From the NCBI RefSeq assembly GCF_050320075.1, contig NZ_CP190025.1: a stretch of 5,772 nt of DNA. The stretch is one strand, 5' to 3'. The notes under the pieces are model-generated. The model ran no database searches and was not told the origin of the DNA. It saw only the letters and a program-made list of their open reading frames with translations. Shown here in pieces: positions 1,795 to 4,312 of this stretch. The DNA comes from Escherichia coli (GTDB taxonomy: Bacteria > Pseudomonadota > Gammaproteobacteria > Enterobacterales > Enterobacteriaceae). The translations under genes were made by a program, and so were the position numbers. Each line of letters starts with the position of its first letter. Within the stretch, counting starts at the first letter, position 1.

Positions 1795-2943
1795 TCATAA
1801 TATGATGGCTAGGAAGCATATTCCAATACCTATGAGCAGGTTCAACGTCATCATTATTTTTCTAAAAATACTGTTACAATTTGTTTTTAAAAAGAATGCT
1901 GATGGGATAATGAATACTGTTATTGCTATAATTGGGGTTGATAATGCAGCAATAACTTTTATAATTTCGAAATTGGCTTCGCCTGCTATAAATGTGATAA
2001 CAGATACGACAAAAACGATTAATGTTTTGTTTTTAAATCCAAGGGATACTATTGTATCAACAACGCCTGTTAGTGTACCTGTATATGCACCGCTGGTAAT
2101 TAAAATCATGGTTAATATGGAAATGTAAGCAACGAAACTATTTTTTGTTACGTTGGCGCTATATGATAATGCATCGCTGTTAATCTCGCGCATGTTTTTT
2201 ATGTCTGAAGGTGAGAATATATTGCTTAATGAGAACACGATGAATGAGATAAATATTAAAATTAATAGTATCCCAAACATGAAAAAACGTAAATCACCGG
2301 CTGTATCTTTTTTGTTTTGAGCAAAGCGTTGTATACATGGTGAAAAATTAAAACTAAATAAAACAACTGGAAATAGAGTAAGTAAATTACTTGTACTAAT
2401 ATTTTGTATTTCTGTAGAATGTGGATGTGCTGGATGTGAATAGAAATATATAGATAAGAACAGTACAATAAGCAAAGATGGAAATGCTATTCCTGATGCG
2501 AGATGCTCTATCTTTGAATTAAAAAAGATAAAAGAAGAACCAAGGGTTGCAGAAATAATCAGTGACACAAATATTCGCTCTGAACCATTTAGACTTAGGC
2601 TAAAGCAAATAATATTTATCATTGTTGTTATGTTTATAATTGCTATTAACAGCATTGATAATAGGAATGCAATACTGATAGCATTTGCGGCTTTTTTTCC
2701 GATAAATAATATGGCAGAACTAACGTATTCTTTTTTGTCTGTAATTAAAATGAATCTATAAAATGTAAATTGCCCTAATAAAGATACCAAAGATGATAAA
2801 ATCAGTATTGTTATTGTTCCGTGAGTTCCTATGACTTTGGGGCCTACAGTCTGGGGTAGGAAAAAAATCCCTGCCCCAAATGATGTTGCAAAGAATGTTA
2901 CTGGCCATTGGATGCTATTTATCTTCATTTTTGAACCTTTCAT
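1795..2943 (-). CDS. HAAAP-family (TC 2.A.42) amino-acid permease, SdaC/TdcC-like serine/threonine transporter homologue; substrate unknown
   Basis: The long ORF encodes a polytopic hydrophobic protein. Several segments align by eye to E. coli SdaC/TdcC. FGAGIFFLPQ matches IGAGVLFLPI. PVVLFSFNFSPCIQRFAQNKKD matches PVMVFSFNHSPIISSFAVAKREE. ALSYSAN matches ILSYLAN, and LSTPIIAITVFIIPSAFFLK matches LGGPIIAMILFLMPMYAIQK. I chose the start ATG 2943..2941 because it overlaps the upstream stop as ATGA. ATG 2928 (AAAGG 7 nt upstream) is an alternative. The track's 2979 start would overlap the upstream gene by 40 nt. Confidence 0.8.
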   Translation of the reverse strand: MKGSKMKINSIQWPVTFFATSFGAGIFFLPQTVGPKVIGTHGTITILILSSLVSLLGQFTFYRFILITDKKEYVSSAILFIGKKAANAISIAFLLSMLLIAIINITTMINIICFSLSLNGSERIFVSLIISATLGSSFIFFNSKIEHLASGIAFPSLLIVLFLSIYFYSHPAHPHSTEIQNISTSNLLTLFPVVLFSFNFSPCIQRFAQNKKDTAGDLRFFMFGILLILIFISFIVFSLSNIFSPSDIKNMREINSDALSYSANVTKNSFVAYISILTMILITSGAYTGTLTGVVDTIVSLGFKNKTLIVFVVSVITFIAGEANFEIIKVIAALSTPIIAITVFIIPSAFFLKTNCNSIFRKIMMTLNLLIGIGICFLAIIL

Positions 2944-3830
2944 TTGAAGCATGATGTTCCAAAGAAAATAAGTAAACATGGAAGATTAAAATTACTATAA
3001 AAAGATGCTGCTGCTTTATAGCCATTAATTACATTAGCCATTGAGCACAATGGGAATACACCTATGTGTGATGTGTAATTGTCAAATGTCTTGTTCGATG
3101 AAATTTTATATCGAATCGAGCGAAATGTAGCTGCGTTACCTGCTGCACAAGTCGGTTTGTTATTTTTTATCACTTCAAATGATGAACCATCGACATTCAT
3201 AAAAACAGAGTTGTTTTCTTTAAAAAATGGCTTTTCTTTTTCTTTTCTTTTAATGTGTCGTTTAAAACGATCTGCCATGTTTTTTTCACTAACATAGAAA
3301 CAATTTATTTTTATATTATGCTGATTCTGTTTCTCTATAATATAGTTATTTATTACTTCTGGTATTATATAGGGTGATGTGGCTAGTTTTCTATAAATAT
3401 TACCACCATCGATATCTTCGCCATTTGATTTTTCCATGTAGAAATCATTTATTTCCATGAGGAAATCAGGTTTTATATTTAGCTCATGTGTTGATTTTAT
3501 TATGTAGTCAATGCAAAATTTAGCCGATTTTTCAACCTCATTACTAACTGAAAAACGGTCATTCAAATTCACAACAGTATGTCCACCAGATATAATAATC
3601 TTGTCTGATGTGTATTTTTCGGCTAGTTTTATTACAGTATCTATGTTGTCATCTGATATTTCTGTGTTTATTATCTCATCGATTCCTGTGCAATCTGCTT
3701 TGTATACAACAAATCTGTCTTCTTTTTTCCAGTCTTTTGTACAATTACATTTATAGCCCTCGTATATTGCTCTTTTGTTTTTTTTATAAAAATCTGGACT
3801 TTGTAAGGGCATTATTTCTAGGTCTGGCAT
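2940..3830 (-). CDS. Hypothetical 296-aa soluble protein, Lys/Asn/Ile-rich, no family recognised; first gene of the cargo operon
   Basis: ATG 3830 is preceded by AAGGAAG (3844..3838) with a 7-nt spacer, and the stop is TGA 2942..2940. An uninterrupted 296 codons in ~25-30% G+C DNA is unlikely by chance. The only motif-level resemblance I see is DKIIISGGHTVVNL (strand followed by SGG), which is PP-loop-like but lacks the Asp/Ser of SGGxDS. There is also a Cys-containing PTCAAGNAATF segment. Confidence 0.75.
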   Translation of the reverse strand: MPDLEIMPLQSPDFYKKNKRAIYEGYKCNCTKDWKKEDRFVVYKADCTGIDEIINTEISDDNIDTVIKLAEKYTSDKIIISGGHTVVNLNDRFSVSNEVEKSAKFCIDYIIKSTHELNIKPDFLMEINDFYMEKSNGEDIDGGNIYRKLATSPYIIPEVINNYIIEKQNQHNIKINCFYVSEKNMADRFKRHIKRKEKEKPFFKENNSVFMNVDGSSFEVIKNNKPTCAAGNAATFRSIRYKISSNKTFDNYTSHIGVFPLCSMANVINGYKAAASFYSNFNLPCLLIFFGTSCFK

Positions 3831-3970
3831 AGTTATGCTTCCTTTGTCACAAAGAAAATATTTTGCTAATTATGACTTATACATATCAATGATAGAGATC
3901 ATGTTAGTGTTTGATCATTGATGTCTCCTTTATTTATGTGATGCGTCTCTATTTTTTCTCTTATAGTGTC

Positions 3971-3999
3971 TTGGATGTTATTTGTTAAATATGTATTGT
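3971..3999 (+). promoter_or_regulatory. Putative sigma70 promoter for the tRNA gene
   Basis: The elements are TTGGAT (3971..3976), a 17-nt spacer and TATTGT (3994..3999). The predicted start is ~4006, which is at the first tRNA nucleotide (4007). Both hexamers match the consensus at only 4/6 in an A+T-rich context, so this call is weak. Confidence 0.3.
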
Positions 4000-4006
4000 T
4001 TTTTGT

Positions 4007-4095
4007 GGAGAGGTGGGCGAGTGGTCTAAGTCAGGGCTCTCTTGAGGCCATATGCGACAAGCGTATCGTAGGTTCGAATCCTACCCTCTCCGCCA
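4007..4095 (+). tRNA. Type II (long variable arm) tRNA, Ser-like body with anticodon CUU; isotype ambiguous
   Basis: I folded the cloverleaf by hand. The acceptor stem is 4007-4013 GGAGAGG with 4085-4091 CCTCTCC, 7 Watson-Crick pairs. U8 is at 4014. The D stem is GGC (4016-4018) with GTC (4030-4032), and the D loop carries GG at 4023-4024. The anticodon stem is GGGCT (4034-4038) with GGCCA (4046-4050), giving a G-A mismatch on top, 3 GC pairs and 1 GU pair. The anticodon loop is CTCTTGA (4039-4045), placing anticodon CTT at 4041-4043. The variable arm is 17 nt (4051-4067), with stem TATGC/GCGTA and loop GACAA. The T arm is GTAGG-TTCGAAT-CCTAC (4068-4084). The discriminator is G4092 and CCA is encoded at 4093-4095. 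Confidence 0.85.
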
Positions 4096-4156
4096 TTTTG
4101 TTGATCGTTTCCCCCACCATTTGTTGAATTGAGAGGGGTTTTGAAAAAAGATCAAA

Positions 4157-4180
4157 GGATCCTCTTGAGATCCTTTTTTT
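4157..4180 (+). terminator. Weak intrinsic-terminator-like hairpin between the tRNA and RNA II; its 3' arm overlaps the RNA II -35
   Basis: The structure is GGATC (4157-4161), a 7-nt loop, GATCC (4169-4173) and then T7 (4174-4180). The equivalent element is present upstream of RNA II in pMB1-type origins. The stem is only 5 bp, so efficiency is probably low. Confidence 0.4.
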
Positions 4181-4202: not shown

Positions 4203-4312
4203 AAACAAAAAAACCACCGCTACCAACGGTGGTTCGTTTGCCGGAATCAAGAGCTACCAACTCTTTTTCCCGAAGGTAACTGGCTTGGTGGAGCGCAGAT
4301 ACCAAATACTGT
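4203..4312 (-). ncRNA. RNAI: RNA I antisense copy-number regulator
   Basis: The bottom strand reads ACAGTATTTGGTATCTGCGCTCCACCAAGCCAGTTACCTTCGGGAAAAAGAGTTGGTAGCTCTTGATTCCGGCAAACGAACCACCGTTGGTAGCGGTGGTTTTTTTGTTTAC. This gives three hairpins and a terminal U-run, and it is fully complementary to the RNA II 5' end. Confidence 0.85.

Follow-up and report, generated by a model that had tools for sequence, protein, structure and literature searches.

A complete ColE1-type mobilizable plasmid of Escherichia coli (RefSeq assembly GCF_050320075.1, contig NZ_CP190025.1; 5,772 bases, the whole of which is referred to below as the window) is 100% identical to plasmid p0 of E. coli J-8 (NZ_CP047007) and combines a backbone with RNAI, rop, mobC, mbeB and mbeD with a small cargo. 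The cargo consists of two genes on the minus strand, one coding for a 296-amino acid protein that we denote ORF296 (ORF, open reading frame) and the other for a permease, and of a gene for a tRNA-like RNA that is transcribed divergently from both (Table 1). The insert that carries the two protein-coding genes (1795..4006) has a G+C content of 30.9% compared to 54.0% for the remaining plasmid, in line with the A+T-rich setting described in a first-pass annotation of this DNA. The cargo is found on plasmids in 21 of the 5,426 complete E. coli genomes, with 0 chromosomal copies, and the identical ORF296 protein is present on 928 public contigs. PGAP annotates the E. coli cargo as two hypothetical proteins and a 'tRNA-Lys', and we came across no account of the protein, of its accessions or of such an RNA-protein pairing in the searchable literature.

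The ratio of nonsynonymous to synonymous changes (pN/pS) relative to a plasmid lineage at 94% DNA identity is 0.14 for ORF296 and 0.16 for the permease gene. Together with the 56 homologs described below and a good ribosome-binding site, the former value indicates that ORF296 is a real gene under purifying selection. The 296-codon frame and the strong Shine-Dalgarno sequence with its 7-nt spacer are as the first-pass annotation had reported; the overlap that it saw between the ORF296 stop codon and the permease start codon is not. The sequence ATGA exists at 2943..2940, but the RefSeq start of the permease gene is the ATG at 2928, and in the relatives at 94% identity the frame opened by the upstream ATG is closed by a TAA three codons later, with a 1-nt indel between this ATG and the next, so that the ATGA is not the permease start. 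The junction thus consists of a TGA stop codon, an 11-nt spacer containing AAGG and the ATG, that is, tight linkage with no overlap; the gap between the ORF and the permease gene is 60-135 nt in Serratia and Pectobacterium.

Table 1. Features of the ORF296 cargo in the window (coordinates refer to the 5,772-base plasmid)
Feature	Position	Strand	Details
Permease coding sequence, 377 aa, divergent Ser/Thr transporter (STP/HAAAP)	1795..2928	-	ATG at 2928, 11 nt after the ORF296 stop
ORF296 coding sequence, 296 aa, predicted stand-alone catalytic core of class I aminoacyl-tRNA synthetase fold without anticodon-binding domain	2940..3830	-	
Invariant C294	2949..2951	-	two residues from the C-terminus, just past the fifth predicted strand; place of the KMSKS loop in synthetases
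PLC, with invariant P260 and C262	3045..3053	-	directly after the fourth predicted Rossmann strand
KPTCAAGNAAT, with invariant C228 (3147..3149)	3126..3158	-	N-terminus of the predicted helix after the inserted beta-meander
Invariant R147	3390..3392	-	
Invariant D129, NDF motif	3444..3446	-	end of the second predicted Rossmann strand
SGGHTV, with invariant H84 (3579..3581)	3573..3590	-	C-terminal end of the first predicted Rossmann strand; matches no PP-loop or HIGH pattern
CNC motif (C28, C30)	3741..3749	-	N-terminal extension; C30 kept in nearly all relatives
Shine-Dalgarno sequence AAGGAAG	3838..3844	-	7 nt upstream of the ATG at 3830; sequence reading
Divergent intergenic region	3831..4006	.	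promoter-like hexamers by consensus scan; pattern matches only
Putative operon promoter, TTGATA-18-CAAAAT	3889..3860	-	consensus match only
Putative RNA-gene promoter, TTGGAT-17-TATTGT			ends ~7 nt before the RNA 5' end; consensus match only
tRNA-Ser-derived tRNA-like RNA, long variable arm, G73, encoded CCA	4007..4095	+	ARAGORN, Rfam, covariation
Symmetric hairpin with T-runs on both strands	4154..4176		between the 3' end of the tRNA-like gene and RNAI (4205..4310)

A search of 5.8 billion proteins detected 56 homologs of ORF296, down to 34% identity, in Enterobacterales, Veillonellaceae, Lentisphaerae, Alphaproteobacteria and Cetobacterium, and an exhaustive profile search of 1.84 billion representatives retrieved only 57 proteins, none of them annotated, which makes the family a rare one. 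The earlier failure to recognize any family holds for the curated libraries: the family profile gave 0 matches at E<=10 among PDB sequences, the Pfam scan of ORF296 and 34 aligned homologs returned noise only, with no synthetase family and no match to cyclodipeptide synthases (CDPS), and nothing was found for ORF296 in NCBIfam and PADLOC. PADLOC produced no matches for the proteins of the window, and we discarded the possibility of a known anti-phage defense system. A faint Pfam similarity of residues 100-174 to the MptE-like pterin diphosphokinase (E 0.011-0.023, in 3 of 34 members) is treated as coincidental, structure searches lending it no support. One cluster of ORF296 homologs is widespread on Serratia chromosomes, and in Cetobacterium, a ~6.9-kb Rep3/relaxase plasmid carries a homolog together with genes for an EamA transporter and a metallo-beta-lactamase (MBL)-fold protein, in the order EamA, MBL, ORF. 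Given the ColE1-type plasmid described here, the module is a small-plasmid cargo in two phyla; 0 homologs were found among the viral contigs of IMG/VR. In three loci (L009, L015 and L018) the homolog (~6001..6890) is broken by frameshifts, and the permease gene of Edwardsiella anguillarum is split as well, indicating that the module is decaying in some lineages.

The structure of ORF296 was predicted with AlphaFold2 from the 34-sequence alignment, with a predicted local distance difference test score (pLDDT) of 90.8 and a predicted template modeling score (pTM) of 0.90. Foldseek comparison of this model to the PDB gave ArgRS (E 1.8e-7) and CysRS (E 1.2e-5), and the search of viral models agreed with this result, retrieving giant-virus ArgRS and CysRS; in three structure libraries, the best matches are class I aminoacyl-tRNA synthetases (aaRS), namely ArgRS, CysRS and MetRS of subclass Ia/Ib. 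The model contains five parallel strands (residues 78-86, 122-128, 177-181, 254-259 and 285-289) and, between the two halves of the core, an insert consisting of a helix and a beta-meander (residues 182-250), the arrangement of a Rossmann domain with a CP1-type insertion. Only 7 residues follow the last strand, which leaves no room for an anticodon-binding domain. Judging from this model, ORF296 is a stripped-down relative of the class I aaRS catalytic core, nearest to ArgRS and CysRS.

The family lacks the signature motifs of this core. The HIGH motif (HxGH) is found in 0 of the 76 full-length relatives, in which the corresponding loop reads NLxDRF, and neither is a KMSKS-like motif (0 of 76). 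Most relatives have a C-terminal GKS, the lysine of which is replaced by threonine in the window protein, which ends in FGTSCFK. The residues that are invariant down to 18-20% identity are H84, D129, R147, P157, C228, P260, C262 and C294, and C30 is nearly so. When model and alignment are combined, the invariant residues fall on strand ends or immediately behind them, which would place the His/Asp/Arg/three-Cys set at the usual active-site edge of a Rossmann domain. In a zinc active site of the CysRS/MshC type, Cys/Cys/His(/Glu) ligands line the amino-acid pocket; the ORF296 residues that might be considered for such a site, H84, C228, C262 and C294, have these strand-end positions in the model. 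The serine of the region that provides the catalytic serine in CDPS is not conserved, S81 being an alanine in many relatives.

The first-pass annotation had seen in SGGHTV a degenerate PP-loop-like motif, a resemblance that it called weak and perhaps coincidental, and had speculated about an ATP pyrophosphatase resembling TilS, MnmA or TtcA that would use an imported amino acid to modify C34 of the adjacent CUU tRNA. Several of the observations behind this proposal are sound. SGGHTV and the cysteine-bearing KPTCAAGNAAT segment are both present, and in the model, helix 62-73 is followed by the strand 78-86 bearing SGGH, so that the SGG follows a beta strand as expected; furthermore, PP-loop enzymes and class I synthetases are commonly included in one Rossmann-like (HUP) class, and some tRNA-thiolating PP-loop enzymes have conserved cysteines. 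The broad intuition, a nucleotide-binding-type Rossmann-like fold tied to tRNA biology, agrees with the predicted fold and the gene linkage, and indeed TilS, MnmA, TtcA and ThiI share this broad architecture with ORF296 and are tRNA-directed. The specific enzyme is nevertheless scarcely credible. Neither SGGxDS nor the relaxed form [SA]GG.[DE][ST] occurs in any of the 76 full-length relatives, no PP-loop enzyme is among the structural neighbors listed in the three structure searches, and the profile and structure searches together yielded no profile match and the core of a class I synthetase. The anticodon arm, which would contain the target C34, is the only part of the partner RNA that is not conserved; the predicted fold, the family-wide absence of the motif and the variability of this arm all contradict a TilS-like enzyme that attaches an imported amino acid by an ATP-dependent reaction.

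The partner RNA is recorded by ARAGORN and PGAP as an 89-nt tRNA-Lys(CUU), and it reaches 46.2 bits with the Rfam tRNA model, the gathering score of which is 29. It has the form of a class II tRNA, its variable arm being 6 bp long; the D and T loops are conserved, and the cloverleaf is backed by covariation. In an alignment of 11 sequences fitted to the model, including one ordinary tRNA-Ser, 99.1% of the cells are paired and 12 of the 20 pairs show compensatory changes, a result equaled in 0 of 500 shuffles; slid registers of the same alignment are only 37-59% paired. Four acceptor-stem pairs (G1-C72, G2-C71, A3-U70 and G4-C69) and G73 never vary in the family, and an ordinary tRNA-Ser gene near one of the loci (L015 9705..9792) differs from the family in the acceptor stem/G73. 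The tRNA-Ser identity elements, namely the long variable arm, G73, G1-C72 and G2-C71 (PMC9976931), are all invariant or structurally conserved in the RNA family and, on these sequence features, the tRNA-like RNAs should be serine acceptors.

The anticodon arm has no comparable constancy. The window RNA and its relatives at 94% identity have a canonical-looking 7-nt loop (CUCUUGA), and another 7-nt loop, UUUCAUA, is found in locus L134. The arm of the Serratia RNAs is a 12-bp stem with a 5-nt loop, those of Edwardsiella, L009 and L025 are GNRA-capped hairpins, that of a Veillonellaceae metagenome-assembled genome (MAG) has a 6-nt loop and that of L030 a 7-bp stem; overall, the hairpins that take the place of the arm in relatives other than those with a 7-nt loop measure 5-12 bp and have loops of 4-14 nt. 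The replacement of the anticodon arm by such assorted hairpins implies that neither anticodon chemistry nor decoding is the conserved function of these RNAs.

Homologous tRNA-like genes adjoin the ORF296 homologs in about 12 lineages from several phyla, usually at a distance of ~20-300 bp. The RNA-bearing loci include the E. coli ColE1 plasmids, Serratia (L007 and L029), Edwardsiella (L015), an Enterobacter plasmid (L034), a Salmonella plasmid (L033), the Veillonellaceae MAG (L002), L009, L025, L030/L031 and L134; in a Lentisphaerae MAG (L013), the RNA gene is located 3 kb from the ORF. The loci behind these counts are limited in number, and some are related to each other. In about half of the lineages, among them L023, L026-28 and a distant branch discussed below, there is no tRNA-like gene within 6-8 kb on either side (less on short contigs), a distribution that fits an enzyme also drawing on host Ser-tRNA.

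The association is also apparent from the side of the RNA. A metagenome scan with the T-arm/acceptor motif CGTAGGTTCGAATCCTRCYCTCTCCG retrieved at least 120 loci (L035-L154), including ~42 ordinary tRNA-Ser genes, and among the neighbors of these loci, collected with the RNA motif as the only seed, the ORF296 family tied as the largest cluster and was the only top cluster to extend beyond near-identical contigs. Dozens of the scan loci, mostly from soil, are tRNA-Ser-like genes with irregular 8-12-nt anticodon loops on contigs with no ORF296 homolog; crude clustering of their neighbors revealed no conserved protein partner, and these genes may be related to the 'allo-tRNA-like' genes mentioned in PMC7609411. 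We also considered the possibility that the RNA is an integration-site remnant and rejected it because the RNA is full length and covarying, resides on plasmids, occurs in both orientations and has been duplicated along with the 5' end of the gene.

Several individual arrangements of the RNA gene deserve description. The Salmonella plasmid pRSE40 (194 kb) carries two tandem copies (L033 6086..6188 and 6235..6337) beside a module of the ORF, a Ser/Thr transporter and an MBL-fold protein. In L030 (4901..7794), two MBL-fold genes flank the homolog. The RNA of this locus (5887..5982), which has no encoded CCA and is followed by the start codon after only ~20 nt, was overlaid by the gene caller with a spurious 43-aa ORF. 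In the Veillonellaceae locus L002, a duplication (14400..14980 on the minus strand with 7740..8010) comprises the promoter region, the tRNA-like gene with its terminator hairpin and some 20 codons from the start of the ORF, the duplicate is fused upstream of an operon encoding a radical SAM/SPASM protein, a transporter of the major facilitator superfamily (MFS) and an Asp/Glu racemase, and both copies lie near genes for IS200-type (Y1) transposases. In the window, the hairpin downstream of the RNA gene could end transcription from either side, in which case the tRNA-like RNA would have a ~60-80-nt 3' trailer that needs processing.

The most constant gene neighbor of the ORF296 family encodes a transporter, the family of which varies by lineage: a Ser/Thr-type permease in Enterobacterales, EamA in Veillonellaceae, Cetobacterium, L023 and L026-28, MFS in Lentisphaerae and L025, and SSF in the distant branch. 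The window permease matches NCBIfam TIGR00814 end to end (E 1.3e-23), but with 83.8 bits against a curated cut-off of 525.8, and has no Pfam match; PGAP labels its orthologs 'threonine/serine transporter'. The earlier suggestion that the three genes form a unit stands as far as the recurrence of the RNA gene, the ORF and an amino-acid-type permease is concerned, but not with C34 chemistry as the tie between them. An MBL-fold hydrolase adjoins the ORF in most loci; those that lack one are the window plasmid, L024, L023, L026-28 and, in the distant branch, L155-157. The nearest solved relatives of these MBL proteins are 2P4Z and TM1679, both uncharacterized products of structural genomics. The PDB gives 2P4Z, to which the MBL proteins of L002 and L007 are closest, the generic molecule name 'Metal-dependent hydrolases of the beta-lactamase superfamily II'; we take this name to be that of COG1237, a group that includes an archaeal pterin-pathway enzyme, and we regard this, too, as coincidental.

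Two further gene contexts are noteworthy. In alphaproteobacterial MAGs (L004 7430..10888; L011, L012, L014 and L016), the gene order is NUDIX, ORF, MBL and radical SAM, and the radical SAM protein resembles prokaryotic viperin (pVip; PADLOC E 8.7e-19; NCBIfam viperin E 4e-14, below the cut-off), which hints at nucleotide chemistry in this branch. On a hydrothermal-vent contig (L023 695..6675), the homolog is encoded between a radical SAM gene and genes for EamA and a short-chain dehydrogenase, with a 60-aa ORF and a LuxI/LuxR pair immediately upstream, a layout that looks like a quorum-regulated secondary-metabolite cluster.

The distant branch consists of two proteins (P0084 and P0138) that are ~20% identical to the window protein and 52% identical to each other, P0084 matching the family profile at E 6e-19. 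In both genomes, the ORF belongs to a gene string that comprises an SSF transporter, orphan proteins, a full SerRS (Seryl_tRNA_N, E 3.5e-18; tRNA-synt_2b, E 1e-43) and a serine dehydratase. The ORF296 family has three independent links to serine, namely the tRNA-Ser-derived RNA, the Ser/Thr-type permease and the SerRS string. An acceptor end that is invariant while the anticodon arm is free to change, an RNA that is optional and the linkage with SerRS jointly suggest an enzyme engaging the acceptor end of Ser-tRNA.

We therefore tentatively favor, as a reading that falls somewhat short of probable, a role of ORF296 at the acceptor end of seryl-tRNA or of the tRNA-like RNA, in making or processing a small molecule that is transported. 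Under this scheme, ORF296 would bind the acceptor end of seryl-tRNA, the substrate in many lineages, this plasmid included, being a dedicated carrier RNA that derives from tRNA-Ser and has been freed from decoding. The host SerRS would charge the carrier without reading the anticodon, and ORF296, acting like a CDPS, would pass on the seryl group from the tRNA or alter it chemically. The transporter, here the Ser/Thr-type permease, would import the amino-acid substrate or export the product, the MBL-fold hydrolase, where present, might have the product or the 3' end of the RNA as its target, and the private RNA would represent a substrate pool insulated from the ribosome. A more elaborate version, possible but doubtful, is a self-contained, horizontally mobile 'tRNA-templated' system in which a new enzyme of class I synthetase fold with a Cys/His center converts or transfers serine from a private carrier RNA that has a degenerate anticodon arm and is charged by host SerRS, and the transporter moves the product across the membrane, for instance, an amino-acid antimetabolite like those formerly described as small microcins encoded on plasmids. 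In either form, the module points to a hitherto undescribed non-ribosomal use of seryl-tRNA.

Several observations weigh against the proposed action on seryl-tRNA. The serylation of the RNA, the binding of its acceptor end by ORF296 and the ensuing chemistry are parts of the scheme that we infer, and the product, the substrate and the phenotype are hypothetical. The fold assignment draws solely on a predicted structure and has no counterpart at the residue level: hhalign of the family against a five-species CysRS alignment (the E. coli CysRS sequence having been checked against 1LI5) gave a probability below 1%, and for this reason, a match by eye of H84, C228 and C262 to the CysRS zinc ligands is not used as evidence. 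The RNA was not found within 6-8 kb of the ORF (less on short contigs) in Pectobacterium, in alphaproteobacterial MAGs or on Cetobacterium plasmids, nor within 6 kb on the plasmid contig L024, which encodes a permease along with an 84%-identical homolog, the closest outside the ColE1 plasmids. Irregular tRNA-Ser-like genes are abundant in soil metagenomes, where they have no ORF296 neighbor, so the RNA class is not exclusive to the ORF296 system. Finally, the SerRS of the distant branch, known from two lineages, could be a housekeeping copy.

Three other explanations accommodate parts of the same evidence. ORF296 could be a minimal, non-canonical ATP-dependent synthetase that itself charges the private RNA with an amino acid imported by the permease, and the missing functional anticodon of the carrier would keep the pair outside translation. 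True synthetases, rather than enzymes that use aminoacyl-tRNA, are indeed the top structural matches, and the best of them, ArgRS, requires tRNA for amino-acid activation; the acceptor stem and G73, invariant across phyla, unlike those of the nearby ordinary tRNA-Ser, suggest recognition by the co-transferred protein; and a truncated CysRS that has no anticodon-binding domain and serves a dedicated tRNA provides a precedent (PMC7609411). We consider this explanation unlikely because HIGH and KMSKS are absent from all 76 relatives, the lysine of the C-terminal GKS is a threonine in the window protein, lineages with no private RNA would mischarge the host tRNA-Ser, presumably to their harm, and an enzyme capable of charging the RNA itself would make the distant-branch SerRS linkage superfluous. 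It is quite unlikely that ORF296 functions independently of tRNA, together with the transporter and the MBL protein, as an amino-acid ligase or thiol enzyme comparable to MshC or BshC, which ligate cysteine to a small acceptor, and that the RNA is a passenger unrelated to it, be it a regulatory RNA, a decoy or a remnant of a mobile element: in about 12 lineages from several phyla, only a few hundred bases at most separate the RNA from the gene, in both orientations, it was duplicated together with the 5' end of the gene in Veillonellaceae, the RNA-seeded scan returned ORF296 as a tied-largest cluster and the only top cluster not confined to near-identical contigs, and the SerRS linkage would be left unexplained. 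A module that makes, or confers resistance to, an inhibitor of SerRS or tRNA-Ser, with the extra SerRS of the distant branch or the over-expressed RNA of the present one as self-immunity and the transporter as exporter, would be at home on the small multicopy mobilizable plasmids that carry the cargo in two phyla (ColE1 type here, Rep3 type in Cetobacterium), plasmids of this sort being a typical location of toxin-plus-immunity genes, and would fit the exporter-type families (EamA and MFS) of other lineages and the one locus that adjoins a radical SAM gene and LuxI/LuxR. Producers of synthetase inhibitors are known to encode a resistant copy of the synthetase in the gene cluster. Against this stand a purely hypothetical product, a window permease from an importer-type family and a decoy RNA acting as immunity, for which no precedent is known to us, and we judge such a module distinctly improbable, while recognizing that it overlaps with the action on seryl-tRNA favored here and does not exclude it.

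For the E. coli plasmid taken by itself, the RNA might be a serine-accepting CUU tRNA that reads AAG as serine, with ORF296 and the permease supporting or controlling mistranslation. The window RNA and its 94% relatives, from plasmids of mouse E. coli, do keep CUCUUGA (~4038..4044) with U33 and a purine at position 37, and anticodon variants of tRNA-Ser stay serylated and cause mistranslation (PMC9976931). The anticodon stem, however, contains a G27-A43 mismatch and a U31-G39 wobble pair, G37 is unusual after an anticodon ending in U36, the other members of the family, with the 7-nt UUUCAUA of L134 as a possible exception, have no usable anticodon loop, so that decoding is not the conserved function, and proteome-wide replacement of lysine by serine from a multicopy plasmid should be costly. 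Mistranslation is accordingly a very improbable function of this cargo.

Should the RNA prove to carry aminoacyl groups without decoding, nature would offer a clear case of a tRNA devoted to chemistry rather than to decoding, and should the mobile carrier-RNA system be real, it would bring two novelties, the enzyme family itself and a biosynthetic carrier in the form of a dedicated non-decoding tRNA. The partner RNA, recorded as an ordinary tRNA-Lys, is also a warning against assuming that every tRNA gene annotated on a small plasmid serves decoding. With its three genes, the plasmid cargo is compact enough for direct testing in E. coli.

Comparison with known systems sets ORF296 apart from each of them. 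With class I aaRS, it shares the predicted five-stranded parallel Rossmann core with an insertion between the halves, and it is genetically tied to a tRNA-shaped RNA; it differs in its size of 296 residues, the lack of an anticodon-binding domain, of HIGH and KMSKS and of any sequence-profile similarity, and in its own invariant His/Asp/Arg/Cys3 set. CDPS, which are likewise small stand-alone proteins with a class-I-synthetase-like fold but no HIGH or KMSKS, use aminoacyl-tRNA instead of ATP and need the charged acceptor arm alone (PMC7672478). They are the closest analog for a possible mode of action of ORF296, with aminoacyl-tRNA as the candidate acyl donor, as suggested by the linkage to the tRNA-like RNA and SerRS; ORF296 does not carry the CDPS family signature, given the lack of a Pfam match and the unconserved S81. 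MshC and BshC are synthetase-fold cysteine ligases of mycothiol and bacillithiol synthesis that make no use of tRNA, and MshC, unlike ORF296, keeps HIGH/KMSKS and a CysRS-like sequence (phmmer with E. coli CysRS, E 3e-70). GluQRS (YadB) and the truncated CysRS* with its selC* tRNA-Cys also retain, unlike ORF296, the signature motifs and clear homology to the parent enzymes, and their tRNAs, in contrast to the ORF296 partner RNAs, have working anticodons. In the biosynthesis of valanimycin, a pathway-linked SerRS, VlmL, supplies seryl-tRNA to the non-ribosomal transferase VlmA, and the linkage of a SerRS gene to the pathway resembles the gene string of the distant ORF296 branch; we know of no similarity between VlmA and ORF296 and of no dedicated anticodon-less carrier RNA in the valanimycin system. 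Sharing the class I fold and failing the sequence hallmarks of class I aaRS, PP-loop enzymes and CDPS alike, ORF296 belongs to no named family and, as its model suggests, probably represents a synthetase-derived kind of enzyme that works outside canonical aminoacylation. Non-translational enzymes of synthetase origin are few, namely CDPS, MshC, BshC and GluQRS, each of which opened a field, and it is to this small set that the so far unannotated ORF296 family would be added.

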